A stretch of 64,000 nucleotides of DNA, taken from contig JAGVIE010000025.1 of NCBI GenBank assembly GCA_020056225.1, forward strand, positions 38,995 through 102,994, read 5' to 3'. The notes under the pieces are model-generated. The model saw nothing but the letters and a program-made list of their open reading frames with translations, was not told where the DNA came from and ran no database searches. Both the position numbers and the translations under genes were made by a program. This DNA is from Bacteroidota bacterium. GTDB lineage: Bacteria > Bacteroidota > Ignavibacteria > UBA10030 > SZUA-254. Positions 786 to 39,670 of the stretch are shown piece by piece. The number at the start of each line of letters is the position of its first letter. The stretch's first letter is position 1.

Positions 786-1757
786 TTAGAATTGTAATTC
801 GAATGTCATGGAATAAGTCCCTGGCAAATATTTAAAATTATTGTAAGCAAGATCGAGCGTGCCATCGACGCCGAATCTTCCCATCGTCAAACCAAGCCCG
901 CCGGTGAAATCTTCCTGGTCGTATGCAAATTTATACCCACCCCGAAGCGCGACCATATTATTGAAGACATACTCTGCGCCCAGGTTGTACTGTTCCTCGG
1001 CATCATTCAAGCGGGATATCTGCAAAGTCGTTATCACCTCATGGTTAGCTTCCTTCAAAACATCGACCAGTACACCAAACCGCAATGCTGTAGGAATAGA
1101 TGATTGCTCTTCCAAATACTTGATATCTTTACCGATATTGTTCAATGAAACGCCGATATGACTGCGAAGAATTGCAATGTCATAAAGTGTTCCGATATCG
1201 AATGCGAATGTTGCCGCGCTGACCTCTGTATTGAACAAATAGGATTTAATATACTTCGCGTTTATACCGACTCTGAATTGATCCGTTACCTGACGAGCAT
1301 AAGCTAAGCTGAATGCATAATCGCTTGCCCGGAAATTACGCCCGGTACCCTCAGGAAACAATGGCGTAGTCTCAACGATATCGCCTGTAGTCAGCATTGT
1401 TATGCTCATTCCTACAGCACCGATACCGGGGAAATTCCTTACTACGCCGACAAACGAGTGCTGTATATCCGCGAACCAAGATGTGTAAGAAAATCCAACA
1501 CCATAGTTACTTACAGTCATCATGCCGGCTGGATTGAATGGAATTGACGAGACACCATTTGCAATAGCAACCTGTGCGCCGCCGATTCCAACCGCTCGGG
1601 CGCTTGTAGGTATTTTAAGGAATGTAGCCGATGTCGTGCCGGATCTATTCCCTGCTGTGCTTTGTCCACTCAGGAATATTAATAAGAGAGCGATAATCCC
1701 AAGATGTAATATTTGTTTATATAATCTCATAGCTTTTTCTCCTTGAAATCTTGTCAA
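786..1757 (-). CDS. Outer-membrane beta-barrel protein of the PorQ/PorV (T9SS-associated, FadL-like) family
   Basis: Signal peptide followed by 'TSATFLKIPTSARAVGIGGAQVAIANGVSSIPFNPAGM', the hallmark N-terminal motif of PorV/PorQ-type barrels. The 323-aa size fits PorQ. It ends in the aromatic residue F. Confidence 0.6.
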   Translation of the reverse strand: MTRFQGEKAMRLYKQILHLGIIALLLIFLSGQSTAGNRSGTTSATFLKIPTSARAVGIGGAQVAIANGVSSIPFNPAGMMTVSNYGVGFSYTSWFADIQHSFVGVVRNFPGIGAVGMSITMLTTGDIVETTPLFPEGTGRNFRASDYAFSLAYARQVTDQFRVGINAKYIKSYLFNTEVSAATFAFDIGTLYDIAILRSHIGVSLNNIGKDIKYLEEQSSIPTALRFGVLVDVLKEANHEVITTLQISRLNDAEEQYNLGAEYVFNNMVALRGGYKFAYDQEDFTGGLGLTMGRFGVDGTLDLAYNNFKYLPGTYSMTFELQF

Positions 1758-8996: not shown

Positions 8997-9595
8997 TGGA
9001 TCATAATTTCATATTGTGGAGTAAAAATATAAGCATAGGCTCCCTTCACTAACGATTTATCAAGATCGAGCACAAGAATTATTTTTGTAGTCTGTGACTC
9101 ACCGACATGGAATGAAATATCTTGATGGAACACCGCGGGATAATTCGCTGATTTCACCACCGGAACCGGTTGCTGTTCATCTGCGTTTGATCCTAATAAA
9201 AGAGTACCTCCGGGATCGATTTGAAAATCGCATCCGATGTAATCACCGGGAGGCGCATAAACCTGACCGATGATGACGTTTCCTTTGATCGCCAACGAAT
9301 CAAGTGTGTTCACAACGATAGTAGTTATCTGATTTGAAGACTCTATGATTTTTGCGTCCTCAAAAACTTTCAGAATGCCTCCATCAGATCTTATCGCTTG
9401 GATTTTATCGACCTTGATGATAAAGTTTGTAAATTTAGTGATCTCGATATTCTGCGATATCGTACGAAGACGAACTTCTATCATACCGGGCAGAGGCGAA
9501 CGATAATCGTATTGGCAACTAATGTTGATGAATGCTAATACTATTGTGAGGGAAAAAATCGCGCCAATTGGGTAAATTCTCTTGACAACCTTCAT
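8993..9595 (-). CDS. Hypothetical small lipoprotein, first gene of the receptor operon
   Basis: Signal peptide with 'INISC' lipobox-like Cys. ATGA overlap with the downstream gene. An AT-rich promoter region lies upstream. Confidence 0.5.
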   Translation of the reverse strand: MKVVKRIYPIGAIFSLTIVLAFINISCQYDYRSPLPGMIEVRLRTISQNIEITKFTNFIIKVDKIQAIRSDGGILKVFEDAKIIESSNQITTIVVNTLDSLAIKGNVIIGQVYAPPGDYIGCDFQIDPGGTLLLGSNADEQQPVPVVKSANYPAVFHQDISFHVGESQTTKIILVLDLDKSLVKGAYAYIFTPQYEIMIQ

Positions 9596-9813
9596 ATGTT
9601 TTTTTTGATTTGACGGTTAGGGGGATTAGTTATCAATTTACTATAGTATTCTAAGTATAATGAAAAAAATAGATACAGTCAAGAAAAATAATGGCTAAAT
9701 TGAACAAAATATAGACTATAAAAATTAGCCAATTTTGCATCTCCAGATATTTTATGTATCTTATTTCTATCCAAATATCCATCGGTATTCTTATTAAATA
9801 TTAATGGTTCTCA

Positions 9814-10878
9814 ATGAGATGTAAACTTATCTTCACCTTCGTGTTGTTGGCTCTTTTCTTTGGCTGTAAAAATAAAACAGTCGATTCGGGAGAAACTAAG
9901 CCAATTTGGAAGACTTTTGTAAAGGCGAATACTGCTGGAATGCTTAGCGATAATATCCTCACAATATATATTTCCGGTATCGGGTCAGTATGGTTCGGTT
10001 CCGATTCAGGAGCATTTTATTATCATTCTAATTCATGGAGTTATCCCCCCCCCGATTCATTCAACTACACAGTGGGTCCTAATAAAACAGTAAAGAGAGA
10101 AATCTCTGCTATCTCCGAAGGCAAGTCTGGAAGTATGTGGTTCGGTTTAAGATTTGCCGGATCTTACGGTATAAGGAGGATGAATACTATAGATGCTCGT
10201 GAAAGATGGCAAAAATATAATGTTGGAAGTAACTATATAAGGGGCATCGTATCTTACGATTTGAATTCTGAAAAAATCTGGATAGCAACTACCGATGGAG
10301 CCAGTATCTACACCTTCACAGATGATAATGATCAAACAAAAGGTACACTCGATGAAATACCTACATCGAATTTTATTGACCCAATGATTAATTGTGCGGC
10401 TATTAACCAAAAAAACGGATACGTATACTTCGGCATGAATACCGGAGTTTCATACTATAACACTAATTCACGAAGTTGGAGTAATTATTTCTTACCGGAT
10501 GCTTATCAATCTGCCATTCGCTCCTTAGCTGTCCAATACACTTCAAATATAGTCTGGCTCGGGAAAGATATAGGTGTAACGAACTTTACGCCAAGCGACA
10601 CCGCACAGCATTATACTAATATTAACACCGACGGTAAATTACCCTACGGCACTGTCAATACAGTAATGACGGATTTCTTTTCAACAACGAGATGGTTCGG
10701 AACTAATGCCGGATTGGTTCAATTGAAAAATAACGAATGGAAAACTTTTACAACGGATAATACGCCGGAATTACCCAGCAATATTATCAAAGCTTTATAC
10801 TACGATTATGTAAAGAAAAATTTATGGATCGGAACCGATAATGGTATCGCTGTCTACAATGAAAGCGGTGTGCGATAA
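9814..10878 (+). CDS. Secreted beta-propeller protein with two-component-regulator propeller (Reg_prop-like) repeats
   Basis: Signal peptide with lipobox 'LFFGC'. Repeated approximately 40-aa units each carry an aromatic-Gly core ('VWFGSDSGAFYY','MWFGLRFAGSYGI','IWIATTDGASIY','VYFGMNTGVSYY','VWLGKDIGVTNF','RWFGTNAGLVQL','LWIGTDNGIAVY'). Confidence 0.6.
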   Translation: MRCKLIFTFVLLALFFGCKNKTVDSGETKPIWKTFVKANTAGMLSDNILTIYISGIGSVWFGSDSGAFYYHSNSWSYPPPDSFNYTVGPNKTVKREISAISEGKSGSMWFGLRFAGSYGIRRMNTIDARERWQKYNVGSNYIRGIVSYDLNSEKIWIATTDGASIYTFTDDNDQTKGTLDEIPTSNFIDPMINCAAINQKNGYVYFGMNTGVSYYNTNSRSWSNYFLPDAYQSAIRSLAVQYTSNIVWLGKDIGVTNFTPSDTAQHYTNINTDGKLPYGTVNTVMTDFFSTTRWFGTNAGLVQLKNNEWKTFTTDNTPELPSNIIKALYYDYVKKNLWIGTDNGIAVYNESGVR

Positions 10879-11998: not shown

Positions 11999-14260
11999 TT
12001 ACAACGATTTCCATTCACACTCCCAAGTATGTTTATCTGTGCGAACAAGCGCCTGGTCACCATTCTTGTTGGCGTAGACTCCTTTAGTACCGTTGAAATA
12101 AAACACTCCGGCAAGTTTGCGCGGCATAATAATATAATCCAGCTGTGAATATTTTTTCTCATCGAAATCCTCGCGTTTGAATTTCGTCTTCCATGTTTTA
12201 CTATCGATAGGTTCAAGCGATACCGATATCCTCCCCCAGCGCGTAGGTGAACTTATCAACTCCATGGTTTTGCCGGCATTCAACTCAGGCAATCCGATAC
12301 CTTCGAAAAGACGAATATTTTTTTCGTCCTCGAGTATCATCATATGGCGAAGATACCTTATACACTCGGCGCTCGCCCAATTATGAGGCATATCTCCGAT
12401 GAAATCGAATACAGGAGCATCCTGCAATGATTGTTCTTCACGCCACGCATATAGAGGTGATGCGTGATTTAAGAAACCGATGAATGTTTGGCGTGCAAGG
12501 TCTTTGTAACCTAAGTAGAGATATGTTTGTGCGAGGACCGCTGCGTTGTAGGGCCAGAGTCCGTTATTCGACATCCAGCCGGTTTCGATTGGAATATCTT
12601 CTTTAACGATCGATCTCATTAAATCAACATGACCGCCGACGATCTTAGATCCCTTTGTGAAAAGAAGTCCCGGATAAATTGCTTGTGATAAATAAATCTG
12701 TGCCGCCTGAGGCTTTGGTTGTTTAAGCAGATCGGTTTCGCTCCATTTCGGATCGCTCTTCATCAACATTGGTAGGTATGAAAATCCATTCTGGCTATCG
12801 CGATATTCTGTTGTTGTAGATTTAAAGAAATCCTGCCGCAGTTCTCCGTAAAAATCTCTGATATCAACTCTTCGTGATAACGACTTCCTTTTCGCAATAT
12901 CATCCATCGCTCTCAGAGCAATAAGCGTCCATATCGTATTCGTGTATTCTTCACGTATCCCTCCGATACCGCTGTCGCCGAACCCACGCGGTAATAATTT
13001 GTATTTACTATTCGATGAACCGTCGTTCAAAGAATCATCGCGCAATTTTTTCAGTGCCATCATCGCCTTATGAGCATCTGGATACATTTCATTGAAGTAA
13101 TCCCAATTCTGAGATAATTCCGCCTGACGGATTAATGCGCAAACTGCAACGGGAGTGTCTTTCCAATGTGCTTCGCCGGCACCGCCGGTTATCAATCCTT
13201 TTTCATTCTGACGCGCCCAGATCGATTCCAATCCCTCCTGCGCTTCTTTAGCATATCCTAAATATTGAGCGGCTTCTAGTAAGAAATAACCATCCACAAC
13301 CCATAGACCACGATAGACGGTCGGACCGACCTGAAATATTTTTTTGCCGTCCTTTATTTCCCTGGCTTCCAAAATATTTCGTGCCGCCGCAACGATAAAA
13401 TTTTGGTACTCGGGTTGCAATTTCCATTCAACCTTTCCCGATGTCGGCTCCCACGATTGCCAGAATTTACGGGCATCTTCCAAGAGATCCTCTTGTTCTT
13501 CGAGTCCATCTTCAATTTTATTATACGGCTGTCCTTCCTGAGGAAATCTAACAAAATATTTCAGCGGCTCATCGATTGAAACAGTTCCTGTCTTCAACCG
13601 GAAATGATGAACACCATCGATCAATTGATATTCAACCGTACTGTCCACTGCCATGAACAATTTTCCATCAGTTGTGTCGAGATTGACGCGCGTAAAATCA
13701 CCCTCCACATTCAGTACGAACATTGCTGTGGACTTGATGATGATTTCCGGAGTACATTGCACACGCTGAGACTCCTTTGGCATAATCTCAACAATCAGAT
13801 TATCTACTCGACCTTCACCGGAATCGTTTGATGCGAAAGAAGTCAATTGCATGACAACATCGCCGCCATCGAGTTTCGTCATGATGATAGGAATTGAAGG
13901 CGATTCAAGTTTTTGGTCGATATATTGAAGTGGATCTTTTCCTTGCAGCGTTACCGATACGATGTGCGGAAATACTTTCTCATCGGCTCCCGTACCGGGA
14001 TGACCATATAAAAGTTCTCCGTACTTTCCAACTAAACTTTTAAACGGATCATCGGGGAAACAATAAGTTGACTGCCATGATGCCGGAGCGTATCGAAAAT
14101 CGATTCCATCTAACGGAAGTTGTTTTACGGCAGCTGCCTGAGCTTCACTACCGAGATACCGATCAAGGGGTGATGATTCCATGAGATTCCTTCCGACCGT
14201 CAGTGCGCCAACGGTAACACCGAATTTTGCCAAAAACTCCCGACGAGTATTCTTGCTCAT
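11999..14260 (-). CDS. Tat-exported large protein, possibly an (alpha/alpha)6-type glycoside-hydrolase-like enzyme; function uncertain
   Basis: Twin-arginine signal 'RREFLAKFGVTVGALTV'. A 753-aa ORF. The Trp/Tyr-rich central region is reminiscent of six-hairpin glycosidases. No definitive catalytic motif was identified. Confidence 0.55.
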   Translation of the reverse strand: MSKNTRREFLAKFGVTVGALTVGRNLMESSPLDRYLGSEAQAAAVKQLPLDGIDFRYAPASWQSTYCFPDDPFKSLVGKYGELLYGHPGTGADEKVFPHIVSVTLQGKDPLQYIDQKLESPSIPIIMTKLDGGDVVMQLTSFASNDSGEGRVDNLIVEIMPKESQRVQCTPEIIIKSTAMFVLNVEGDFTRVNLDTTDGKLFMAVDSTVEYQLIDGVHHFRLKTGTVSIDEPLKYFVRFPQEGQPYNKIEDGLEEQEDLLEDARKFWQSWEPTSGKVEWKLQPEYQNFIVAAARNILEAREIKDGKKIFQVGPTVYRGLWVVDGYFLLEAAQYLGYAKEAQEGLESIWARQNEKGLITGGAGEAHWKDTPVAVCALIRQAELSQNWDYFNEMYPDAHKAMMALKKLRDDSLNDGSSNSKYKLLPRGFGDSGIGGIREEYTNTIWTLIALRAMDDIAKRKSLSRRVDIRDFYGELRQDFFKSTTTEYRDSQNGFSYLPMLMKSDPKWSETDLLKQPKPQAAQIYLSQAIYPGLLFTKGSKIVGGHVDLMRSIVKEDIPIETGWMSNNGLWPYNAAVLAQTYLYLGYKDLARQTFIGFLNHASPLYAWREEQSLQDAPVFDFIGDMPHNWASAECIRYLRHMMILEDEKNIRLFEGIGLPELNAGKTMELISSPTRWGRISVSLEPIDSKTWKTKFKREDFDEKKYSQLDYIIMPRKLAGVFYFNGTKGVYANKNGDQALVRTDKHTWECEWKSL

Positions 14261-14287
14261 TTTAATCCTTTATTGTAAAGTTAATGT

Positions 14288-16576
14288 TCACTTAATAATA
14301 ACAAATTTTCCGATTTGTTGTCCGAAATCCGAATCCACACTGAAAACAAATACGCCACTTGCAATTGGTCTTCTGCTCTCGCTGAATAAATCCCATTCTT
14401 CCTGTCCGGTTGCCAAACCGCGTAGCCTACGTTCAGCATCGTCATGGTGAATGGTTTGTATGATTTCGCCGGCTATAGTATAAATCCGGATAGTCGCTTT
14501 TTCAGGAAGGCGGATGAACCAGATAACTCTTTTGTCCGGTGTCCAATTATAGCTGGGACCCTCGAAACCGAATCCGTCGGTATAAGGAACATCGGCGCGA
14601 TAAGGATTGGGGACAACTAAAACTTCACCAAGTTTTTTCGACGGCTCGAACAGCAAATGCGTTTGTGTAGCATTTTCAATTAACTCAGATTCGACTGGAG
14701 GTCCGATTAAGTTTGCCTGATGAATAACTCCACCTGCATCGGGAAAGGGGATTGTCATCCCTTCCGGTATCGAATACGAAGTTACCGCATACCAATATTT
14801 GTTGTATGCTTTCAACGTTGAATCGACGAATGTAAATCGCAAACCGGTCTGAGACCCGAATCCTAAATCATCATCGGCATCATACTGAGCAAGCATTGTG
14901 AATGATTCGACGTTGAATGTATCCGATTCGCTGCGCCACAGCTTGAAACCTTCAAGGTTTCTTCCGCCTTTTGTTTTCCCGTCAGGTGGATTTTTCTTCC
15001 GCCAATGTGTATCCGGTAACGAAGTTAAATATTCATTATGCTCATCCCAATTTTCAAGTGGATCATTTCCTATGTCGCCCGGTTTCCACTTCCAGTCTAA
15101 TATAATATTAAATCCTTCTCTTTTAACGTGAAGAGGAGGCGATGGAATATTTATATTCTCATAACCATGTTTAGAAATACTTATAGCTTTAGCGGCATTA
15201 TCTCGTAAACTGTTCGGGACTTCCGCGATTGCATCACCAGAAACAAAAGCGACTGCACATTTTACGGTATCACCCGGGTACATGGTTGGAAACGGACCAA
15301 TGGAGATAAACATCCTAACGTCTGACATATATGATGGTGGTTCAGAAAAGGGCCCAGAAGAACATAGGAATGCTGAACAATTCATCTGCATATATAGAAT
15401 GCTATCACCATATGAACCATCGCACTTCGTTGAATAATCAGCCCATTGGAAACAATAACTTAACGAGTCGAGAGGAGTTGATGCATCAAGCAATGTTAAT
15501 CCTAATGGAGTTGAGCCGCGATCCACAGGATTATGACAGTAAAATGTTCTTAAACTATCAATATACCCAACGTAATTATTATTAGGATATTCATTGACAT
15601 CAATCGGTCCAACATCGGGATCAAGGAAAAAAGCTAAATACACATCTTTGAAAATCTTTTTACCGATGTTTACAAATGTGTACTCGATTGGAAGAATAGG
15701 TTCTTTGACTCTATTTTTCCATGCTAAAGACTTCTGCCATACTTTTATACCCATACCAACATGACCTCCAATTTGAGGTCTGCTGAAAGTATCTGCATAA
15801 GCGCAAGATAAATCGTTCTCCGAGATTGCGCCGTAGTCCTCATCTACATTCGGCTCTCCATGATCGGGCTTGTTGTTGTTTTCTGTATAGACATTGATAT
15901 CATTTTTGTAAGGAAGAGTCCCAGTATAATTGACCGGGCATTTACTTTTCTGCAGAGGGTCATAATTATCTTGAGCAGGATCAGGATTTGTGAGTGAATC
16001 ATATGGAATCCCATCGCAACTCATTTCAAATCGATCCGCAAAACCATCCATGCCAACATCATCTCTGAGCGGATTCCAATCTCCATCATTATCCAGACCG
16101 TCAAGTTCATCCTCATCGATCTTACCATCACCGTCATCGTCATAATGACGACGGTTATGACCGTTGGGAGTATCAATACTCGTCTGCCAAAAATGATCAT
16201 CAGTACCTCTTGCTTCGTTGCGAGCATCCCCCCCATTAAACATCTCTGTCACTCTAATGTTAGGATAGTACGATTGATTCAATGAATCGTAAACAAGCGC
16301 ACCGATGCGAGGACCACCGGCAAAGAGATGCTCAATATTCGAGCCGGCAGGATATTCTAAATTAATCCCTCCTGTTTCATAACCGTAATAACCCAACACC
16401 CCGCTGTTGCTCATCCAGAGTTTCATGTTATACCCTTGCTGAGTATATACAACATTAGTGACGGGACCCGGTATTACATTAGGATGTCTCTGTTTAATTA
16501 AAGGTTGTGCATTTACAACTGAAATGCAGAACATCAACATTACAATAGTACCAATTATACAATCCAGTCTTTTCAT
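14288..16576 (-). CDS. Secreted T9SS cargo protein with thrombospondin type-3-like Ca-binding repeats; paralog of 1754..4174
   Basis: Signal peptide. 'DDDGDGKIDEDELDGLDNDGDWNPLRDDVGMDGFAD'. Shared block 'HGEPNVDEDYGAISENDL'. C-terminus 'GVFVFSVDSDFGQQIGKFVIIK' is a T9SS CTD. Confidence 0.7.
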   Translation of the reverse strand: MKRLDCIIGTIVMLMFCISVVNAQPLIKQRHPNVIPGPVTNVVYTQQGYNMKLWMSNSGVLGYYGYETGGINLEYPAGSNIEHLFAGGPRIGALVYDSLNQSYYPNIRVTEMFNGGDARNEARGTDDHFWQTSIDTPNGHNRRHYDDDGDGKIDEDELDGLDNDGDWNPLRDDVGMDGFADRFEMSCDGIPYDSLTNPDPAQDNYDPLQKSKCPVNYTGTLPYKNDINVYTENNNKPDHGEPNVDEDYGAISENDLSCAYADTFSRPQIGGHVGMGIKVWQKSLAWKNRVKEPILPIEYTFVNIGKKIFKDVYLAFFLDPDVGPIDVNEYPNNNYVGYIDSLRTFYCHNPVDRGSTPLGLTLLDASTPLDSLSYCFQWADYSTKCDGSYGDSILYMQMNCSAFLCSSGPFSEPPSYMSDVRMFISIGPFPTMYPGDTVKCAVAFVSGDAIAEVPNSLRDNAAKAISISKHGYENINIPSPPLHVKREGFNIILDWKWKPGDIGNDPLENWDEHNEYLTSLPDTHWRKKNPPDGKTKGGRNLEGFKLWRSESDTFNVESFTMLAQYDADDDLGFGSQTGLRFTFVDSTLKAYNKYWYAVTSYSIPEGMTIPFPDAGGVIHQANLIGPPVESELIENATQTHLLFEPSKKLGEVLVVPNPYRADVPYTDGFGFEGPSYNWTPDKRVIWFIRLPEKATIRIYTIAGEIIQTIHHDDAERRLRGLATGQEEWDLFSESRRPIASGVFVFSVDSDFGQQIGKFVIIK

Positions 16577-19283: not shown

Positions 19284-19316
19284 AACCTTGCGAAGGTTCT
19301 GAACCTTCGCAAGGTT
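19284..19316. promoter_or_regulatory. Tandem pair of 15-bp palindromes AACCTTGCGAAGGTT-CTG-AACCTTCGCAAGGTT (four AACCTT/AAGGTT half-sites), an operator-like site or hairpin
   Basis: Read directly from the sequence: a perfect 15-bp inverted repeat with a 3-nt loop. Each arm is itself a 6-3-6 palindrome. It lies 18 bp past the stop of 19334..20788 and approximately 280 bp upstream of thiI. No U-tract follows on either strand. Confidence 0.5.
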
Positions 19317-19333: not shown

Positions 19334-20788
19334 TTATCTGACGAGCAACATCTTCTTCACCTGTGTGAACGACTTGCTTTGGTCAGCTACACCAACCGCA
19401 TCTAATCTAAAGAAATACACTCCTGATGCGGCAGTACTTGAGTTCCATTCCGTTGTTCGAAAACCTGCAGTTTCTATTCCATCCACAAGCACCTCTACAA
19501 CCTCCCCCAGTAGATTATAGATCGTAAGTTTTACTTTACTATCTACTGGCAAAGCGTACTTAAGTGTAGTTGTCGGATTAAACGGATTCGGGTAATTATG
19601 TTGTAATGCGAACTCCTTCGGCAGTTCGATATCTGTTCCTTTCCCCATCATCAGTTTAGTTGTCAAGATGGCAGAGGTATTGATCGTAATACTGCCTGAG
19701 CCTTTGAGCGGATATGTTTTTTGCTTCTCATTCTCAGTAGTTGTCTCCAGCGAGTAATTATTATCATCAGCATCCATCACCCACGTGATTGTGACAGGGT
19801 CTTTCGCACCGTTGATCATGATTGGAAATCGCTGTACTGCACTCTGTTTCTCAATATCGAATACCACAGCCGAGCGTTGCGAGTTGAAACGGACATCAAA
19901 TCCCACAGGCGGTGTAGGCGGAAGATCAAATTTATTAAGATTGAGTTCTACCTTCTTCGCAGTGAAATACAAAGTAGCCTTTCGACCGGTTCCATCTTGC
20001 ATTGTCAGGAAATGCAATCCTTTTTCGGTGGCAAGATTAGAACTGAGCGTTGAAAGGCTCAAGCTCTTTGCCTGCTTGGGAATACTTTGAGCAATGTCGG
20101 ACAATAGCAGAGTGCCTGTTTTGAGGACAAGCTTTCCTGCCTCACTTGTTTTTACCCAATACCCTTTGCCGGGTTTTAATGTGTCTTCTTCGTTGTATAT
20201 TCCGTCATAACCGAAGAAGACTGAAGTGATAGTCATTGGTGGTATTGGTTCAACATCTGCAACGAGGATTGGGTAATCGAGTGCACCGATCATATTCCAA
20301 CGGCCACTGACATCGATAGTATCGCGCATATAGCTCGTGCCTGCAAGTATGATCATGTCTGCGGATGGAAATTTTAGCCAGTAACCTACTCCGTTATGTA
20401 ATGTATCTTTTGTTTCATATGAGGTCACGTAGGCAAACGCATCCGAAACAGCCGTGGGAAAGAGTGTGGTTTTCCTTGAATCACTCACAATCAAAGGCAG
20501 TGAGATCATGTTCCATGATTCTGCCACAGCATATTCCAAAGTAGTAAAAGAGCCTGAATATGTCCGCAAACCTGGCATGAAGCCGCTCTCCATAATATTA
20601 CCGGTATCGAGGTATGTCATTTTCTGGATTGCCGGCTGACCGATGGACGAGCGAAGCACTATATCGCCGGAGGTTGCCTTCCCGCCGCCGCGATCTACCA
20701 CCCACCATGGGTGCGTTATTGTTTGTGTGTACACAAACATACTGCAAATTATAAGCAGTACATTTAGTAGTAAAATTTTTCGTTTCAT
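19334..20788 (-). CDS. Secreted hypothetical protein with a C-terminal T9SS sorting domain
   Basis: Signal peptide. C-terminus 'GVYFFRLDAVGVADQSKSFTQVKKMLLVR' is a typical T9SS CTD. Confidence 0.6.
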   Translation of the reverse strand: MKRKILLLNVLLIICSMFVYTQTITHPWWVVDRGGGKATSGDIVLRSSIGQPAIQKMTYLDTGNIMESGFMPGLRTYSGSFTTLEYAVAESWNMISLPLIVSDSRKTTLFPTAVSDAFAYVTSYETKDTLHNGVGYWLKFPSADMIILAGTSYMRDTIDVSGRWNMIGALDYPILVADVEPIPPMTITSVFFGYDGIYNEEDTLKPGKGYWVKTSEAGKLVLKTGTLLLSDIAQSIPKQAKSLSLSTLSSNLATEKGLHFLTMQDGTGRKATLYFTAKKVELNLNKFDLPPTPPVGFDVRFNSQRSAVVFDIEKQSAVQRFPIMINGAKDPVTITWVMDADDNNYSLETTTENEKQKTYPLKGSGSITINTSAILTTKLMMGKGTDIELPKEFALQHNYPNPFNPTTTLKYALPVDSKVKLTIYNLLGEVVEVLVDGIETAGFRTTEWNSSTAASGVYFFRLDAVGVADQSKSFTQVKKMLLVR

Positions 20789-20900: not shown

Positions 20901-22472
20901 CTAAAGTTTCATAATGAACGCCAACTTAAAGTAAGGCGGTAATGTGGTTGTACTCCCACTCGTAAATGATGCGATGTTAACATCATGTGTGTGTGCCTCG
21001 GACGCCGCAAAACTCACAGGAGCAGGAGATCCAAATATAACATTGGATCCTTCATTGGGCACAGTTGTTTGTGTGTTAGGAGGGTTAACAGAATGTGTGT
21101 GAGAAGTTGACCCGCCTGTTACACCGGGATTTTCTCCGTCAGAAGCTCCCCAGATAAATCTGTCCCGCAAATCCGGGGTTCCGTTAGCTCCATTGCAAAG
21201 CGCCCAACCGGCTGGGATGTTGATCAGCAATCCAGACCACATGACGATTACACCGGATGGTATCGAAGCCGCCGTGATCTGTGAGGTTCCGTCCGGGAAT
21301 TTGAAACCTCCGCTCGTCGAGTGGATGGTTCCGGCAACTTGAAGTTTTTCAGCGGGACTTACCGTCCCGAGGCCGACATTACCTGTGCTAAAATCGCCAT
21401 AAATGAGAGGTGGGTTGGTGAGGCTGTTGGCAATGTAGAGTTTGTTAGAACCGGTTTCATTGTAGCCAGCCTGATTTCCAAGGAACACATTGCTGTCGCC
21501 CTCGCTGTTGTAGCCAGCCTGACGTCCCAACGCAGTATTATAGTTTCCTGTGGAGTTGGAATAAAGCGCAACTATTCCGTTCGCGGTATTATAGCTTCCT
21601 GTAGTGTTGGAATATAGCGCACTGGATCCATTGGCGGTATTTTGGTTTCCTGTACTGTTTAAGTAAAGCGCACTCCTTCCATTGGCGGTATTATAGTCTC
21701 CTGTGGAGTTGGAATATAGCGACTGCCAACCATTGGCAGTATTGTTGTATCCATTAGAGTTGGAGTACAGCGACTGAAAACCATTGGCAGTATTGTTGTA
21801 TCCATTAGAGTTGGAGTACAGCGACTGAAAACCATTGGCAGTATTGTTGTATCCTACAGTATTGGAAAATCCAGATCGGTAGCCAACAAATACATTTCCA
21901 TTAGCTCCTAAGTCATCATTTGTCCCAGCTCCTTCTCCCACAAACACCGATTGCCCTGTATTGTATGTTTCTATTTGTCCTTTGGTTGTGATGCGGGTTC
22001 TCAATACATTATTGGTGCGGATATCGAATGCCTGTGCATCGGTGGTACCGACAAAATTCGTTCCTGCTGTAGTATTTGTATTGCCTTTAATATTCCAACT
22101 ACTAAGTGAATACGGTGCACTTGTTAACTCCGACCTCGGTGAAAATGTTAGGGGAGTTGAAATGCCCGGTCCGGCAAGTGCGGTCACTTCCACGAAAAGC
22201 GATTCGGCAAATATCGTGCTTGTCGGATGGAAAATCACGCTGAACGTCCCTCTTGAAACCGGGATTCCTGTCTGAGTTTCTGTGTACTTTAAACTTCCAT
22301 CAATGGGTAAATTGTAAATATCAAATTTTAAATCGTATCCTCCGTCGGTCACCGGCGTGCCTGCAGAAGTTGTAAGCAATCCCTGGTAAGAGATTTTGTT
22401 TGGTACTTGTGCAAGAGCTATCATGCTTACCCCAAGCACCAAAACCACGAGTATATTAATTAAGGTTTTCAT
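20901..22472 (-). CDS. Secreted tail-fibre-like protein: shared N-terminal module, 7 x 17-aa 'NTANGxxxLYSN(S/T)TGxx' repeats, and a phage tail-collar-like C-terminal domain
   Basis: Signal peptide. The N-terminal approximately 110 aa are nearly identical to the two downstream paralogs. The repeat array is NTANGFQSLYSNSNGYN x2 (identical) followed by diverged copies. 'GNVGLGTVSPAEKLQVAG' is a tail-fibre motif. The C-terminus 'IVMWSGLLINIPAGWALCNGANGTPDLRDRFIWGA' resembles a phage tail collar domain. Confidence 0.7.
   Translation of the reverse strand: MKTLINILVVLVLGVSMIALAQVPNKISYQGLLTTSAGTPVTDGGYDLKFDIYNLPIDGSLKYTETQTGIPVSRGTFSVIFHPTSTIFAESLFVEVTALAGPGISTPLTFSPRSELTSAPYSLSSWNIKGNTNTTAGTNFVGTTDAQAFDIRTNNVLRTRITTKGQIETYNTGQSVFVGEGAGTNDDLGANGNVFVGYRSGFSNTVGYNNTANGFQSLYSNSNGYNNTANGFQSLYSNSNGYNNTANGWQSLYSNSTGDYNTANGRSALYLNSTGNQNTANGSSALYSNTTGSYNTANGIVALYSNSTGNYNTALGRQAGYNSEGDSNVFLGNQAGYNETGSNKLYIANSLTNPPLIYGDFSTGNVGLGTVSPAEKLQVAGTIHSTSGGFKFPDGTSQITAASIPSGVIVMWSGLLINIPAGWALCNGANGTPDLRDRFIWGASDGENPGVTGGSTSHTHSVNPPNTQTTVPNEGSNVIFGSPAPVSFAASEAHTHDVNIASFTSGSTTTLPPYFKLAFIMKL
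21730..21831 (-). repeat. Perfect 51-bp tandem duplication (2 copies) inside the coding repeat array of the collar-domain protein
   Basis: Bases 21730-21780 equal 21781-21831 (ccattggcagtattgttgtatccattagagttggagtacagcgactgaaaa). This encodes the identical 17-aa units NTANGFQSLYSNSNGYN. Confidence 0.85.
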
Positions 22473-22488
22473 AAAGTCTCCTTTTTAA

Positions 22489-23190
22489 TTAGTTGTTTGT
22501 TATCCTCGTCAGAATGTATGCGAACTGCCCGGTCTTGCCGTCATATGTAGTGCACTCGTTCTGGTCGAACCACAGCTCAACCCGGAGTGTACCGCTAATG
22601 ACGACCGGACGTGCTGCGACTCTCAACGGCATGTAGGGTGGGCTTCCGCCCGTGGGTACGTACGCGCAAGCCGTCGCCACAACCTGATTAGCTTCCAGCG
22701 ACTGGAACGCGGTGTGCGTGATCACGATCGATATTTTGGGTGAAGCGCTCATAATGTCTGTGCCAAACATTCCTGATGCCGTACCAGCGCATACGAGATT
22801 AAGAGCATATAGAGCCGTATCTGACCTAAACGCATACGGCGCAGTCGTTAGCTCTGAGCGCGGTAAAAGTGTTACCGAATGACTTATACCCGGTCCATCA
22901 GTAATCGTTATTTGTACATACAACGATTCACTAAATATCCCGGATGGTGGATGCAGTATAACACTGAATGTCCCTTTCTCTACACTCACACCTGATTGTG
23001 ATTCTTCATGTTTTAAATCTCCACCAATCGGTAGATTGTAGATACCGAATTGTAGTTCATAGCTCCCATCCTGTACAGGTGTGTCAGAAGAAGTCGTCAG
23101 CAATCCCTGATAAGAGATTTTTTGCGGGACTTGCGCTGAAACAGAAATCACGATAAAACAGCACAACAAGATGGTAATGAAATATTTCAT
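22489..23190 (-). CDS. Secreted paralog of the tail-fibre-like family (shared N-terminal module, distinct Cys-containing C-terminal domain)
   Basis: Signal peptide. 'AQVPQKISYQGLLTTSSDTPVQDGSYELQFGIYNLP...LPRSELTTAPYA' aligns with the N-termini of the neighbours 20901..22472 and 23242..24195. Confidence 0.6.
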   Translation of the reverse strand: MKYFITILLCCFIVISVSAQVPQKISYQGLLTTSSDTPVQDGSYELQFGIYNLPIGGDLKHEESQSGVSVEKGTFSVILHPPSGIFSESLYVQITITDGPGISHSVTLLPRSELTTAPYAFRSDTALYALNLVCAGTASGMFGTDIMSASPKISIVITHTAFQSLEANQVVATACAYVPTGGSPPYMPLRVAARPVVISGTLRVELWFDQNECTTYDGKTGQFAYILTRITNN

Positions 23191-23241
23191 AACGGATCCT
23201 TTCTTGAAAAATAATTATGAATTTGTCAGATACTTGTGTAC

Positions 23242-24195
23242 TTAAAATTGAGTAACCATAATCCGGAACGTACCATTTAAAGGATTTTGTGCCGCCGCGG
23301 AATAATTATTAAACCGTACTGTTACTTCGTTATACGCGGAAACCCATGCAGTATAACAGGAATTTGCTGGAACACTGATGTCCGGAAGCCCCAGCGATAC
23401 TACATCACCAGGGATAGCACCGGTAACGGTCAGCAACAAATCCGCATTGCTCTGGGCGTTCGTACTCGGGAAATTCAATGCGATCGTGAGACTCAAAACT
23501 CTTGTTATCGGTGTCCCACCGATTCCTATGGTAACATCCTCAGCTTTGATGTTGCCGTTGACTTCCAATTTTTCAGTCGGTGTTGCCGTTCCAATGCCGA
23601 CGTTCCCGCCGGCAGGATTTAGTGCGAGCGGGGTAGTCCCGTAGTTTTTAAATGCCTGAAGCCGCCAGCTATCGTTATTGTACGGTTCCGATACAAAATA
23701 CTTCGAGCTTGTACTCCAGGTTCCCTGGCTAATCGCCCCGTTGACATGAAGTGGATTCAGCGGTGTTGCCACACCGATCCCAACGTTACCGGTCGTGAAC
23801 ACAACATTCGATCCTGTCGGGACCCACGGTGATAGTGAATAGGGAGCGCTCGTTAATTCTGAGCGAGGAGAGAATGTAATCGGCGATATTATCCCGGGAC
23901 CTGAAGTCGCGGTAACCTCGATATAGAGCGGTTCGCTAAATATCATCGGGAGGGGTCCGATGGTTAGACTGAACGCACCATGGCTGAGAATCACACCGGT
24001 ATGATTCTCCGAATGGCGCAATGTTCCACCGCTGGATGCATTAAAAAATTCGAATCGTAAATCGTACGATCCATCCTGTACGGGCGCACTTGCTGAAGTG
24101 ATGAGCAATCCCTGGTAAGAAATTTTATTTGGAATTTGCCCGTTCGCCAAACATATCAAAAACAAACATAGAAAAAATGTAACAATGTGTTTCAT
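23242..24195 (-). CDS. Secreted paralog of the tail-fibre-like family (shared N-terminal module plus 'NVGIGTATP..KL.VNG' fibre motifs)
   Basis: Signal peptide. 'GQIPNKISYQGLLITSASAPVQDGSYDLRFEFFN...SPRSELTSAPYSL'. Two 'GNVGIG(V/T)ATP' motifs typical of tail-fibre domain proteins. Confidence 0.6.
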   Translation of the reverse strand: MKHIVTFFLCLFLICLANGQIPNKISYQGLLITSASAPVQDGSYDLRFEFFNASSGGTLRHSENHTGVILSHGAFSLTIGPLPMIFSEPLYIEVTATSGPGIISPITFSPRSELTSAPYSLSPWVPTGSNVVFTTGNVGIGVATPLNPLHVNGAISQGTWSTSSKYFVSEPYNNDSWRLQAFKNYGTTPLALNPAGGNVGIGTATPTEKLEVNGNIKAEDVTIGIGGTPITRVLSLTIALNFPSTNAQSNADLLLTVTGAIPGDVVSLGLPDISVPANSCYTAWVSAYNEVTVRFNNYSAAAQNPLNGTFRIMVTQF

Positions 24196-24615
24196 AATGA
24201 TTCCTCACTTTAATTATGTAATTACATTTTATTTTCTATTAAATATTTTAGCGTTCTATTACTTGCGTTTGAATTGCATCTCCATCGTATTCAGGTGTTA
24301 TAGTTGAAGTAACTCAGTCACAATTCTCGCCTGACTGTCTTATAGAATCTTTGTGTAGGTGCATCATTTATCATTATACAACCGACCAAAGGTAGGTTGT
24401 ATATATACCCAGAGGTGTCGAACTAATGATAGAAAAATATTTATCTATTGTCAAACAAGCATTAATCGTCCTAAGACTTACCAGTGTGTCATTATACAAA
24501 CCGTTGGACAGTTAGAGACAGTTGCTTGATTTACCTCCCTTTATCTCTTGAATTTAGCCTGGAATTAGTGAATTTCTTTAAGTTTAAGGACAGCTTAAAC
24601 CTGAGAAATCGTAGA

Positions 24616-24634: not shown

Positions 24635-24711
24635 CACAGTAAAACATCTCCCCCTTCCTTTCAGGGCTTGTCCTGATCGAAGCGAAAGATAAAAGATTTT
24701 ACAATTTGGTT

Positions 24712-26319
24712 TCAGTCTGGCTCGACTGGATCTTCGGTACTATCTGCGGTTGGTGATGAAGGTAAGCTTGATTGTGTCTCCGGCATATTTTCCTGTTGGG
24801 CTATACCGAGGCCAATCTGATAGAGCATCGGGATGGTAAATTCCATACTTGAATCTACGGTTCTTCCCACAGGCGTCAACAAACCGGTATCGTAAACCGC
24901 TCTGATTCCTTCATCTTCGTTTGGTGCGAGTTTCTCGAAAAGTTTATTTAGTTCCTCCCGTGTAAACCTGATCTTCGAACTTCCCCTGAATACATCGAAG
25001 TGTTTTGCAAGATGCGGGAATTCAGAATAGAGATAAGTATCGCATCTGTAGATGGAAAGCGCGGCAAATGCCTCTTTAAGTGCCTTTGCGCTAATCAGCC
25101 GACCTGATGTATGCTCACCTTCTTTGCGATTGACTTCGATCTGTTTCTCAACGGCAAGATTACCGAGATGGATTTGTTCACGAGGATAGACGTTCCCCAT
25201 TCCATCAGTAAGATTCTTGAGCATCCAGGTATGAGTGAACGGAAAATCCGGCTCAGAATTATCGTCTCTGCCCATGGTCGATTCGAAGAGAACATAAAAA
25301 TATTTCAATACATCTTCTTCTGTACCGTTGATGACATCCGCGACGGCGACCGACTCACCGGTTTGTTCTTCACAATATTCGCGCACAACCGGCTCGGCGA
25401 TAGCTCGCGAAACGAGTAACTTTAAAAGAAGCGAATCGTTCCATTTCATCTCGCTCGTGTAACTCACCAGGTGAGATTTATTGACGATCCGCAACTGACG
25501 GTAAATATCGTAACGAAGAAATATTTTAAAATGAATATTTTTAAAACGATTCGTCTGCTCGATCAGGAGCATAACCAAACCGGTGATTGATGATTTTAAT
25601 TTCTCGAAGTCATCGATAAACAACAGATCGAGTTTATCAAGCATCATCCATGCAAGACAGTTGGTTTCCTGAAGCACAATATCGATATGATCGAGAACCG
25701 CGGTAACGCTCATTCCGGTTTTATGCTTAAAATCACCGGCAAGTATTTTTGGAACCGCCTCATTCGACGACGGCTGATCTTTAAGCGAGGGTTTTACCAG
25801 CGACATAACACGCTGTTTCAACTTTCCTACCGTACTCTTCTCCTGCCCTAATCCCAAATCCTCAACGACCTGCTGGATGATCTTATACGCTTCCTTGAGT
25901 TTCGGATTTTTATTTTTATTGACCATATCGCGGATCTTTGGTTCTTCCGCTATCGCCGTGACGCTTTTCAAACCGATGATCATCAACCAGAAATAACGGA
26001 AATCGTCGATCGAATCCGATTTGATATCGCGGAATTCATTCCCGTATATATATTCTTCATTGTATAATCCATAGACAGGAACACAAAAAATATCTTCATA
26101 ACTTTTCGGAAAGAGGGAACGCAATTTTTCCTTATCGGTGCATAACAACCTGAACGAGGCACTCTTGCCGCTTCCCTTGCTTCCCAAAACGAGAGAATGC
26201 TGTGGTTTCATTACATGCCTCAGCATATCCGTTCCGATAAAACAATTTTCAAAACGGGTATCCGATTCGGCATCTACACGTCCGAAATTCAGCGCTGTTA
26301 ATACTTGTTGTGGCTCCAT
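24712..26319 (-). CDS. P-loop NTPase of unknown function (Walker A/B), an orphan ATPase
   Basis: Walker A 'LVLGSKGSGKSASF'. Walker B-like 'AWMMLDKLDLLFIDD'. Length is 535 aa with no recognisable partner domain. Confidence 0.6.
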   Translation of the reverse strand: MEPQQVLTALNFGRVDAESDTRFENCFIGTDMLRHVMKPQHSLVLGSKGSGKSASFRLLCTDKEKLRSLFPKSYEDIFCVPVYGLYNEEYIYGNEFRDIKSDSIDDFRYFWLMIIGLKSVTAIAEEPKIRDMVNKNKNPKLKEAYKIIQQVVEDLGLGQEKSTVGKLKQRVMSLVKPSLKDQPSSNEAVPKILAGDFKHKTGMSVTAVLDHIDIVLQETNCLAWMMLDKLDLLFIDDFEKLKSSITGLVMLLIEQTNRFKNIHFKIFLRYDIYRQLRIVNKSHLVSYTSEMKWNDSLLLKLLVSRAIAEPVVREYCEEQTGESVAVADVINGTEEDVLKYFYVLFESTMGRDDNSEPDFPFTHTWMLKNLTDGMGNVYPREQIHLGNLAVEKQIEVNRKEGEHTSGRLISAKALKEAFAALSIYRCDTYLYSEFPHLAKHFDVFRGSSKIRFTREELNKLFEKLAPNEDEGIRAVYDTGLLTPVGRTVDSSMEFTIPMLYQIGLGIAQQENMPETQSSLPSSPTADSTEDPVEPD

Positions 26320-26389
26320 GTTAACAAATATAATCTTTTATCTTAGAATTTCATATCCTTTTCTATCAATCCACTACACCAGCCATGTT

Positions 26390-37413: not shown

Positions 37414-38721
37414 CTAGCGCTTCATTCTATTACTATTACTATTACTATTACTATTACTATTACTATCAATTAGATTTTTGGCTATTGCATCGACAATATT
37501 AACATTTACTGCATTTCCCAATGCCTTAAATGCTTTCGTAGATGCTTCTGGCAAATATTTAAGTTCATCCATACTCTGGAGTTTAGCACACTCCCGCACA
37601 GTCATATATCGTTTCTCCCAAGCGATGATAGGAACTTGCGTGGCGGTCATTGCAACAAGTGATGGCGAAGTTGTTGGTCTTTTCACGCGCACACCTGAAG
37701 CTCGAATCTGAATAATATATTTCCAGATATTACGATCTTCACCATTACAATTCCATTCTAATTTTTGAAGGCTCGGTGGAAATATTTTTATCTTGGGTAG
37801 CCAATCATCTATCCATTTTTTATTCTTTTCATAAAGCCCTCTGTTTTGGTTTATGAATTGTATTTTCCAATCAGGGAATTTGGCTTTTTGGTCGCGTGCA
37901 TGTGATGGTAGCTTGGCAAGATATTTTTTGATTTGAATTTTTTGTTTAGCTCGATCGTCCTTAACTGTCAACTTTTTTATCTTAGCTTTGAAAAGCTTGT
38001 ATGGTGTCTGATCTTTATATGAATACTTAGCACCAAACTCCATGGACCATATAGGAAAAGACGGAAGCTCTTCGTCTTTAGGAAATTTATCGATGAATTG
38101 CTGCCATACTTTGAGGCATTGGATGGTTTGCTTGGTCAGTTTTTTTGCACTAGCAGGATTTTTTGAAAGAATAGATCTTATCCGAAGAATTTTGTGATTA
38201 GAAGGTTTGGGCCATGAGAAATTTGGTAATCCTATTTTGCTTCCAACGATGAAAACGCGATCACGAATTTGTGGTATACCAAATTGATGAGGAGAAAGCC
38301 GCTGGTGCTGAATATAATAACCTGCTTTTTGGAGTTTCTTTTCCATTAACTCCCAAGTTTTGCCATTATCATGCCGTGTGAGGTTGGGGACGTTCTCTAA
38401 GATGAAATACTTTGGCTTATGATACTTGATTATTCTTAATGTATATTCAAAAAGATTACCCGACGTCGGACAATTTAATCCTTTTTGATCTCCAGCTTTT
38501 GAAAACGGTTGGCAAGGGAAGCCAGCACAAAGAATATCGTGTTTTGGAATTTCATGTAATTTAATATCACGGATGTCTCCACGCGGCTCAAAACCAAAAT
38601 TATTTTTATATAATTGTCTAAGATCATCATCAATCTCAGATGCGAAAACACACTCATGTCCCAGTTGTTCTAGAGCTACATGAAAACCACCAAGGCCAGC
38701 ATAGAGATCAATGAATTTCAT
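37414..38721 (-). CDS. dcm: DNA (cytosine-5)-methyltransferase with a C-terminal (Ser-Asn)6 tail
   Basis: Motif I 'FIDLYAGLGGFHVAL'. Motif IV 'GFPCQPFSKAG'. Motif VI 'ILENVPNL'. It ends ...DSNSNSNSNSNSNRMKR. Confidence 0.9.
   Translation of the reverse strand: MKFIDLYAGLGGFHVALEQLGHECVFASEIDDDLRQLYKNNFGFEPRGDIRDIKLHEIPKHDILCAGFPCQPFSKAGDQKGLNCPTSGNLFEYTLRIIKYHKPKYFILENVPNLTRHDNGKTWELMEKKLQKAGYYIQHQRLSPHQFGIPQIRDRVFIVGSKIGLPNFSWPKPSNHKILRIRSILSKNPASAKKLTKQTIQCLKVWQQFIDKFPKDEELPSFPIWSMEFGAKYSYKDQTPYKLFKAKIKKLTVKDDRAKQKIQIKKYLAKLPSHARDQKAKFPDWKIQFINQNRGLYEKNKKWIDDWLPKIKIFPPSLQKLEWNCNGEDRNIWKYIIQIRASGVRVKRPTTSPSLVAMTATQVPIIAWEKRYMTVRECAKLQSMDELKYLPEASTKAFKALGNAVNVNIVDAIAKNLIDSNSNSNSNSNSNRMKR
37429..37464 (-). 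repeat. Hexanucleotide simple-sequence repeat (ATTACT)6 on the plus strand, equal to (AGTAAT)6 encoding (SN)6 at the 3' end of dcm
   Basis: Read directly from the sequence: six perfect tandem 6-bp units, in frame. Confidence 0.9.
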
Positions 38722-38725
38722 TGTA

Positions 38726-39658
38726 CTAATTCACGATTGATTTTAATTTTGATATTCTCGGTTTTAGCCACTTTGTTATTTTAGAATTTAGAGTTTGAGA
38801 AATCCAATTGATATTATCATTTGTGGGAGTTAAGATTCTGTATCTATCAAGGAACATTCCCCTCACTAAATTACAATATTTCCTAAAGTCATAATCTAAA
38901 ACGACATAAGGTATGGCAAATGCTTTTTGCGGTTTAGCAGCGAAAAGAACAAGCTTCTCCCATAGGTCAATATTGGGCGTATGCTGTTTTTTAGACCAAT
39001 CTTGTCCACTAGCGCATTGAAGTAAATATACTGGTATACCTACTCTCTTATCAAAAAAAGGTCGATAACATAATAAATCAAGACCAGCTTCATTAGCGTC
39101 TGAGTTAATCCATTGTTCCCAATCTCCCTTGATTTCACCGAGTCTATCAGAAACTTCCTGAACAATATTCCCAATTTTTTTGGCATTCGTCCTGGTCCAA
39201 CCAGTAGAGAATATGATCCACCCACTGAATTGTTTCTCTAAGGACTCTTTTGTTAGCAATTCAAATAACTCTCCTTGCTCTGTGTAGTCATTACCGAATT
39301 GTTCTGCCAACTTAGGGTAATAAGGTAATAACGAAACAATTAGACAAAAGCTATGAGCAATAGCTTCATTCCAAGAATATTTACGCTTAATTTTTGCAGA
39401 GGCTATAACAAAAGGAGATCCGCTTCCTAATAGTTTCTCCCTTCTTTTTAACTCGCTCCAAATATTGTCAACAAATTCTGAAGCAAAATCTTGATCATCG
39501 TACATTTGTTCCTCAATCAGTACGTCAATTACATCAGTAGTAGATATACGATCTTCAGCAAATAATACGCTTCCTTCAAGCCAATCACATGCAACGTCCA
39601 ATCTTGAATTATGCACATTAATAGAACGAGAAAACCCTTTAGTCGGTAGTCTAAGCAT
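38726..39658 (-). CDS. Hypothetical protein in the Vsr-Dcm operon, a candidate restriction/effector component
   Basis: A 310-aa ORF. A 4-bp gap to dcm and a 12-bp gap from the upstream ParB-like gene. No recognisable catalytic motif. Confidence 0.5.
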   Translation of the reverse strand: MLRLPTKGFSRSINVHNSRLDVACDWLEGSVLFAEDRISTTDVIDVLIEEQMYDDQDFASEFVDNIWSELKRREKLLGSGSPFVIASAKIKRKYSWNEAIAHSFCLIVSLLPYYPKLAEQFGNDYTEQGELFELLTKESLEKQFSGWIIFSTGWTRTNAKKIGNIVQEVSDRLGEIKGDWEQWINSDANEAGLDLLCYRPFFDKRVGIPVYLLQCASGQDWSKKQHTPNIDLWEKLVLFAAKPQKAFAIPYVVLDYDFRKYCNLVRGMFLDRYRILTPTNDNINWISQTLNSKITKWLKPRISKLKSIVN

Positions 39659-39670
39659 GTAAATTCCAAA

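Follow-up and report, generated by a model that had tools for sequence, protein, structure and literature searches.

Tandem MAT-like fibre genes and a T9SS-sorted partner gene in an Ignavibacteria-type bacterium

Three consecutive genes of an Ignavibacteria-type bacterium with a type IX secretion system (T9SS) encode secreted proteins that share one N-terminal region and end in unrelated C-termini, one of which resembles a phage tail fibre. This raises the question whether such genes are left over from a phage or belong to a surface system of the cell. The genes lie in a stretch of 64,000 nucleotides of contig JAGVIE010000025.1 (hereafter the window, in whose coordinates all positions are given unless a related locus is named). 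All are on the minus strand and encode w1, a fibre of 317 aa (23242..24195, i.e., 24195..23242 in reading direction), w2 of 233 aa (22489..23190), and w3, a fibre of 523 aa (20901..22472). A fourth gene on the same strand (19334..20788), called the partner gene here, encodes a secreted protein of 484 aa with a T9SS type A sorting domain (PF18962 and TIGR04183). We consider it likely that the four genes form one unit producing fibres akin to the mosaic adhesive trimers (MATs) of Bdellovibrio, with a T9SS-coupled partner. The first-pass annotation had recognized a cellular fibre family, which held up, while the kinship with the MAT superfamily and the T9SS-sorted gene downstream had been overlooked.

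The three open reading frames (ORFs) are co-oriented, and their products start with hydrophobic leaders, which have a cleavage-type site of small residues at their end and an invariant Gln right after it; in w1 the signal peptide covers residues 1-19. A common region of about 104 residues follows, which runs from QVPNKISYQGLL to PRSELT.APY and ends at about residue 119-125. This N-module was located by alignment and tblastn at residues 20-123 of w1 (23827..24138, minus strand; Bdello_MAT_N E 2.3e-5 without the signal peptide), residues 20-123 of w2 (22822..23133, minus strand; also delimited in the AlphaFold2 model), and residues 22-125 of w3 (22098..22409, minus strand). The tandem genes with a common secreted N-terminal module that had been proposed for this locus are therefore real. 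The N-termini had been called nearly identical as well, which was overstated: the mature modules of 104 aa are pairwise 54-64% identical (tblastn E 4e-34 to 4e-43), and their DNA is 60-65% identical with a longest identical run of 11-17 nt. The low DNA identity and short identical runs indicate old paralogs rather than recent copies. Recent gene conversion or cassette copying among the three genes was ruled out on these figures, no identical run exceeding 17 nt. A similarity limited to the signal peptide was also ruled out, as the mature modules align with each other and match Bdello_MAT_N without the leader. No further copy of the module was found in the window by tblastn.

AlphaFold2 predicted the module as a confident β-sandwich, with a predicted local distance difference test (pLDDT) of 90-98. 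A fold search of the PDB and of the BFVD viral models returned only generic Ig-like matches, none of them significant. By exhaustive profile search, the module family comprises 49,330 cluster representatives at E<=1e-3 and 16,702 at E<=1e-10, spread over many phyla, and the module sits at residues ~20-125 in almost all of the best matches listed. In 50,697 phage genomes there were zero matches. Some chains carry two or three modules in tandem (P0154, P0156, P0253, and P0265); in P0154 these are at residues 27-126, 177-275, and 327-430.

The MAT superfamily was described in 2024 and is built of a signal peptide, a conserved β-rich N-domain of ~130 aa, trimeric shafts, and variable tips or an S74 domain (Caulton et al., 2024; PMC10769870). 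The NCBIfam profile of the Bdellovibrio subfamily, NF053851 Bdello_MAT_N ("mosaic adhesive trimer family chimeric fiber protein"), was the sole one that matched the N-termini of all three proteins (E 5e-8 to 2e-5). It also matched 30 of 31 module-bearing relatives (best 3.4e-13) and all 12 mature modules searched without their leaders (best 3e-9), so the match is not due to the signal peptide. The lack of a PDB match for the module agrees with the published absence of a PDB homolog for the MAT N-domain (PMC10769870). Judged by these sequence matches, the N-module is a distant homolog of the MAT N-domain.

The shafts point to the same kinship, since the best sequence matches of w1 and w3 among solved structures are the Bdellovibrio MAT fibres. 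The neck of w3, GNVGLGTVSPAEKLQVAGTIHSTSGGFKFPDGTSQITAAS (residues 362-404; 21261..21389, minus strand), aligns with residues 206-248 of Bd2133 (8OND) at E 5e-11, and the shaft of w1 (residues 130-219) aligns with residues 130-230 of the same protein at E 3e-4; Bd1334 and Bd2439 gave weaker matches. When the w1 model was searched with Foldseek, 8OND came first (Bd2133, E 6e-4), followed by 8ONF and 8OL4 (Bd2439) and then by R-type pyocin fibre tips. Homology with the Bdellovibrio proteins Bd2133, Bd1334, and Bd2439 is thus detectable in N-domain, shaft, and neck, and both groups share the signal peptide followed by a conserved β-rich domain, the GNVGIG...KL.V.G neck motifs of the shaft, interchangeable C-terminal tips, and several paralogs per genome.

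The two groups also differ. The Bdellovibrio MATs are proteins of ~600-1150 aa from a predator, whereas the proteins of 233-523 aa described here belong to a T9SS-bearing, Ignavibacteria-type host, are encoded in tandem beside a T9SS-sorted partner, and include one, w2, without a shaft. No match to PF13884 (S74) was found in w1, w2, or w3, which places them in the non-S74 type, although the relatives P0039, P0042, and P0055 carry S74. Three points tell against a close kinship: the Bdello_MAT_N scores of 24.7, 33.0, and 30.7 bits do not reach the curated cut-off of 60, the match is confined to positions 2-73 of the 162 in the profile, which correspond to roughly 60 residues at the start of the module, and the proteins have a quarter to half of the length of the Bdellovibrio MATs. 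Because the cut-off was missed, we filed them as distant relatives within the wider superfamily and not in the Bdellovibrio subfamily. They are new and unusually short members, from a different phylum, of the known MAT architecture; w1 and w3 fit miniature non-S74 MAT-like members, and w2 fits a base with an orphan C-terminus.

The kinship bears on what the fibres might bind. The sole characterized relatives, the MATs of Bdellovibrio, recognize prey surface glycans (PMC10769870), and the tips described below are of phage receptor-binding type; fibres that serve antagonism or predation by recognizing other bacteria, rather than general adhesion, would be in line with both. We regard this as decidedly unlikely, because the family with its 49,330 representatives is spread over many phyla, the window holds no sign of a predatory lifestyle, and the authors of the MAT study themselves noted relatives in other bacteria, "predatory and otherwise", including non-predatory strains (PMC10769870).

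Beyond about residue 123 the three C-termini are unrelated, as had been stated before, with the exception of one motif, GNVG[IL]GT..P.EKL.V.G, which is common to w1 and w3. In w1 the module is followed by one shaft unit between two GNVGIG neck motifs (residues ~130-219), which are the fibre motifs reported earlier for one of the proteins, and by a predicted β-sandwich tip (residues ~230-317; 23245..23508, minus strand). The AlphaFold2 model of w1 had a mean pLDDT of 80.9, with 87-97 in the tip. Homologous tips are carried by other module-bearing proteins (P0193, P0274, and P0210).

In w3 the order is signal peptide, N-module, repeat shaft, neck, and tail-collar-like tip. The 17-aa repeats noted at first reading were recovered by tandem-repeat detection as an array of about six 51-nt units, YN.TANG.QSLYSNS.G (21531..21888, minus strand). 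They match PHROG virion structural and tail-spike families (E 5e-28 to 2e-11), and relatives carry the Pfam family PF26696 PTL_trimer. The tip (residues ~399-523; 20904..21278, minus strand) matches the PHROG tail-fibre families phrog_8469 and phrog_5795 (E 2e-12 and 4e-15) and the PDB entries 6OV6 (E 3e-7), 9QGO (E 5e-6), and 9NXK (E 2e-5). The tail-collar-like domain claimed for this protein is therefore real as homology, yet with 15.4 bits (E 0.019) it stays below the 24-bit gathering threshold of Pfam Collar (PF07484). The entry 6OV6 is C24 of Bizionia argentinensis, which with other bacterial tail-collar (MdpB-like) proteins resembles w3 at residues 399-482, including the motif GW.LC.G.NGT..L..RF; the likeness is limited to the tip. 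Orthologs of w3 with 76-88% identity were found in several other metagenomes.

The status of w2 is less clear. Its signal peptide and module are followed by a C-terminal region of 110 aa, the Cys-containing head of the earlier description, and there is no shaft motif. Relatives of this region were found neither in ~5.8 billion proteins nor in the related loci, 287 family proteins, or the PDB, and its pLDDT was <50, compared with 90-98 in the module. With an unpredictable C-terminus, no relatives, and no GNVGIG neck, w2 may be a non-fibre or a decaying gene, which counts against a unit of three fibres. The corresponding alternative, in which w1 and w3 are the only functional fibres and w2 is a truncated or decaying paralog whose 110 C-terminal residues form no real domain, appears somewhat unlikely to us. 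The reading frame of w2 is intact with a normal stop, other short module-bearing proteins (~186-300 aa) were found on long contigs, and the low pLDDT is expected because w2 is the only sequence in that stretch of the alignment. A frameshifted fibre was also considered and appears unlikely, since the other frames of the 3' part of w2 contain no fibre-like remnants.

The shaft and tip of w3 match tail fibre, spike, or virion proteins in 178 phage records. Together with the PHROG matches and the PDB tail fibres 9QGO and 9NXK, these matches speak for stranded tail fibres of a prophage, tailocin, or contractile injection system without a cellular role. This origin was rejected and appears highly improbable. 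Pfam and NCBIfam scans, which took in most large ORFs of the window, found no phage structural gene or integrase in the ~15 kb flanking the locus on each side or in the further large ORFs scanned. The absence of adjacent phage structural genes noted at first reading was thus borne out for capsid, terminase, sheath, tube, baseplate, and integrase. The genes of the surrounding ~15 kb are of housekeeping or defence type; their products include ThiI, a rhomboid protease, an OmpA-family protein, a glycolate-oxidase-like pair, a histidine kinase, a DAHP synthase, a TonB-dependent receptor, and defence-type proteins. Moreover, w1, w2, and w3 all carry Sec-type leaders, the N-module is missing from phage genomes against its 49,330 cellular representatives, and the order of fibre and T9SS-partner genes recurs in many genomes. 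Among the 15 best phage records listed, no match begins before residue 117 of w3.

Since the module is cellular and phage-free while shafts and tips are shared with phages, the module is a cellular base domain that carries grafted shafts and tips. The shaft, neck, and collar-like tip of w3 are homologous to those of phage tail fibres and tailspikes (PF07484 and PF13884; 9QGO and 9NXK; T5 pb1 and K1F endosialidase), and close relatives such as P0042 end in S74 as well. In the phage proteins, however, the N-terminal domain binds the baseplate or tail, whereas a Sec leader and the cellular module stand in its place here, with no virion genes near the locus. Context, module distribution, and the uncoupled identities described below support the bacterial fibre or adhesin family with a constant base and swapped tips, in place of a prophage, that the first-pass annotation had suggested.

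The closest relatives are found in Ignavibacteria-type metagenome-assembled genomes (MAGs), and related loci carry one to five tandem module genes, with five in L002 and four each in L004 and L045. The identities of tip and module vary separately. Between w3 and a 509-aa protein of L004 they are 89% in the tip and 67% in the module, and between L009 and L007 79 and 42%, respectively. In the opposite direction, L015 and L014 share 92% in the module and 29% in the tip, and L002 and L011 75 and 26%. This decoupling across relatives indicates mosaic evolution, and in the window itself three unrelated C-termini stand on a common base. Except for the w3 ortholog, the composition of the array differs even between the window and its nearest relative, L004. 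The outer flanks (ThiI, the Sll1717-family ATPase, and OmpA) are not kept beside the arrays of relatives. Signs of programmed variation by a shufflon, an invertible promoter, or a diversity-generating retroelement were not found: the genes are co-oriented, the inverted repeats are only short and imperfect, and no recombinase or reverse transcriptase adjoins the locus.

The module-bearing fibres of Kapaibacterium-type MAGs (L020, L021, L024, L025, L028, and L029) form a clade of their own, with a different conserved pair upstream of the fibre gene at ~9938, consisting of a carboxyl-transferase-like gene of 520 aa and a lipoprotein-like repeat protein of 317 aa; most of these contigs end within the fibre gene.

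The partner gene starts 112 nt downstream of w3. Its C-terminal sorting domain (CTD; residues ~399-484; 19337..19594, minus strand) scores 31.2 bits against PF18962 (cut-off 27) and 36.4 bits against TIGR04183 (cut-off 23). A PorV/PorQ-family protein is encoded at 786..1757 of the window (205 bits, cut-off 90). With a CTD above threshold and a PorV/PorQ-family gene in the window, the partner is a T9SS type A cargo. Comparison of the partner proteins revealed a motif of ~45 aa of the form GGG...SIGQ...SGF right after the leader (HPWWVVDRGGGKATSGDIVLRSSIGQPAIQKMTYLDTGNIMESGFMPGL, residues 27-75 of the partner; 20564..20710, minus strand). It is the sole part common to all partners, which range from 142 to 724 aa, and the smallest of these, such as those of L023 (167 aa) and L045 (161 aa), consist of leader, motif, and sorting domain and nothing else. 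A profile search of the PDB with the partner recovered the T9SS sorting domain only (E 0.087). Its residues ~85-240 hold two similar units, WNMISLPL...GYWLKF and WNMIGAL...GYWVKT, which fell into no recognized family, and such units are also present in T9SS proteins of related loci (759 aa in L002, 1034 aa in L019, and 604 aa in L010).

The linkage of fibre and partner genes recurs. Full-length partner homologs (40-53% identity) stand right after the last fibre gene in 13 related loci, and in more distant loci the adjoining gene encodes a different T9SS-sorted protein of 167-724 aa. Counting the loci with at least 600 nt left downstream, a CTD gene directly followed the fibre gene in 18 of 24; the binomial P of 3e-16, taken against how often CTD genes occur locally, sets an upper limit to the significance, because the loci are related to one another and their independence is overstated. 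Four further partners were found in L039 (upstream), L040 (cut by the contig end), L022, and L026. The last two carry the motif without a T9SS sorting domain: the L022 protein (9443-9871 of that locus; Neomarinimicrobiota MAG) has a dockerin-like C-terminus and lies beside a module-bearing fibre gene, and the L026 protein (13862-14989; "delta proteobacterium" MAG) has FG-GAP-like repeats and also lies beside a fibre gene. A regular expression for the motif matched 21 of 1539 ORFs, 20 of them fibre-adjacent, and the 16 other sorting-domain proteins of the same loci lack it. In independent look-ups of more distant fibres, six of 10 had an adjoining small Por_Secre_tail gene. In four of these six the gene lies upstream, 7-24 nt away, and in one it lies downstream of four tandem fibres, with a gap of 7 nt.

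Fibre/partner pairs were also seen on contigs labelled Promethearchaeota archaeon (L040), Hyphomicrobiales (L032 and L036), and Chlorobiaceae (L001, L003, L008, and L014). As these lineages would not be expected to possess a T9SS, the probable cause is mis-binning of contigs in public MAGs.

The sorting domain is distributed in a complementary way. No Por_Secre_tail or CHU_C match was found in w1, w2, or w3, and a CTD of their own was present in none of 174 module-bearing fibres, compared with five of 80 shaft homologs that lack the module (Fisher P 0.003). T9SS-dependent surface adhesins or filaments of the same bacterial group, such as SprB and RemA of Flavobacterium johnsoniae, have their own C-terminal sorting domain. 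The sorting domain is thus in cis there, whereas for the fibres described here it is found on a separate small protein. In the literature we found no description of a T9SS link to such fibres or of trans-acting sorting domains, and as far as we found the coupling with the partner, the common motif, and the complementary distribution of sorting domains are undescribed.

Several relatives are named trimeric autotransporter adhesins by the Joint Genome Institute. These are likewise repetitive trimeric fibre adhesins, and some relatives show faint YadA_head matches. The orientation, however, is opposite, as the conserved end of the fibres described here is N-terminal, and no Pfam match to a YadA-type C-terminal anchor was found in w1, w2, or w3.

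Regarding transcription, the genes are separated by 51 nt (w1-w2) and 16 nt (w2-w3), and no convincing terminator or comparable hairpin was found on the minus strand between the four genes. The best sigma-70-like match of the region, TTGACA-17-TATCAT (24426..24454, minus strand; 11 of 12 consensus positions), lies ~230 nt upstream of the w1 start codon, and a GAGG precedes the ATG of w1 by 9 nt. At the other end, a perfect 16-bp palindrome (19284..19316, no strand assigned; inverted repeat I3), the candidate terminator of the four-gene unit, lies 18 nt past the partner stop codon. Promoter, terminator, and hairpin-free gaps are consistent with a single transcript w1-w2-w3-partner, rather than proof of it, and the four genes probably form an operon. 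The four proteins come from one contig, and apart from an alternative start of the partner they have no cluster mates at 90%.

From these data we propose the following mechanism. Proteins exported by Sec are cleaved by signal peptidase I, and an N-terminal Gln is typical of exported proteins in this bacterial group (the "Q-rule" of Bacteroidetes). The proteins w1, w2, and w3 would probably be exported in this way and cleaved just ahead of the near-invariant Gln. The fibres would then trimerize and project their tips from the cell surface, w1 with one β-prism shaft unit and a small β-sandwich tip, and w3 with a repeat shaft, a neck almost identical with that of Bd2133, and a collar-like tip. 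The distal domain would set what each fibre binds. Duplication, together with the exchange of shafts and tips, would diversify the array; some of these shafts and tips are common with phage tail fibres. Type A sorting domains take folded proteins across the outer membrane, often with attachment to the surface. The partner motif GGG...SIGQ...SGF may bind the base module and so give the fibres a T9SS sorting domain, or a surface anchor, in trans. The base may have stayed constant because it is the handle recognized by the cell or by the partner motif, and the fibres may lack a CTD because their C-terminus is the working tip, or is cleaved off in S74 relatives. We put forward this adaptor role of the partner, as supplier of the T9SS address or anchor, as a possibility that falls somewhat short of an even chance. 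A wider version, in which the module is a docking site for a dedicated adaptor and the C-terminal address of the latter (T9SS CTD, dockerin-like, or FG-GAP-like) decides export or anchoring, is more tentative still.

Several observations weigh against the coupled unit. The MATs of Bdellovibrio are surface-exposed without a T9SS (PMC10769870). In four of the 24 loci, no CTD gene lies downstream and no motif gene lies in the vicinity, and four of the 10 look-ups were negative, one of them on a contig that ends 249 nt past the fibre gene. Tandem modules in one chain fit a spacer as well as a docking domain. The promoter-like sites are consensus matches whose counts are not above shuffled expectation, and the candidate terminator is likewise only a consensus-type call.

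The exposure of the Bdellovibrio MATs, the loci without a partner, and the spacer role suggested by tandem modules would also suit MAT-like fibres that reach the surface or are kept there in another way, as those of Bdellovibrio must be, for instance by binding of the N-module to lipopolysaccharide or an outer-membrane protein, next to an independent T9SS surface protein, such as a co-regulated adhesin or enzyme. The middle of the 484-aa partner moreover contains conserved domains of its own, with ~300 residues. We nevertheless find such independence unlikely, as the minimal partners with only signal peptide, 45-aa motif, and CTD leave no room for a separate function. Furthermore, the motif persists across partners that differ in their C-terminal address (CTD, dockerin-like domain, or FG-GAP-like repeats), the 7-nt gaps suggest translational coupling, and cis CTDs are missing from the module-bearing fibres.

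If such an adaptor reading is correct, the fibres would be T9SS cargo that obtains its sorting signal in trans from another protein, and type IX secretion would be put to an unusual use. It would also become clear by what kind of surface element the MAT N-domain is held, a question left open by Caulton et al. (2024). The recurrent and tightly coupled partner gene is a concrete and testable candidate for fibre export or retention. The design of a base with swappable tips, described in 2024 for the MAT fibres with which one predator recognizes its prey, is shown by this locus and its relatives to be very common among non-predatory bacteria, with tens of thousands of sequence clusters. Such a constant base, fitted with exchangeable tips of phage type, also offers a natural scaffold for engineering the binding specificity of cell surfaces.

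The neighbourhood contains further genes related to defence and secretion. Directly upstream of the array, an Sll1717-family P-loop ATPase is encoded at 24712-26319 on the minus strand (NCBIfam, 143.7 bits, cut-off 75). It also matches PDC-M28C, a candidate defence family, and phrog_14159. An inverted repeat of 16 nt with 94% complementarity (24686-24701 and 26329-26344) flanks this gene almost exactly, which suggests an inserted cassette; in relatives the gene is not beside the arrays. On the secretion side, an ORF of 806 aa precedes the PorV/PorQ-family gene (both within 786-4174, minus strand; the latter at 786-1757). Its sole family match is a weak one, at the C-terminus, to the sorting-domain profile, and its position suggests a PorU-like candidate. 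Two large ORFs of 753 and 762 aa at 11999-16576 (minus strand) have no Pfam match, and the latter shows a very weak similarity to PorZ (E 8e-4, 18 bits).

Farther away, a NACHT protein of 1425 aa (56890-61167, minus strand) gives a full-length match to the antiphage protein HyoA with 1120.7 bits, just short of the equivalog cut-off (1200). A C-5 cytosine DNA methylase is encoded at 37414-38721 (minus strand); next come a 310-aa ORF without assignment and a protein matching PD-Lambda-5_A and PDC-M38A at 39671-40774 (minus strand). The region 37414-40774 is probably a restriction or defence islet.

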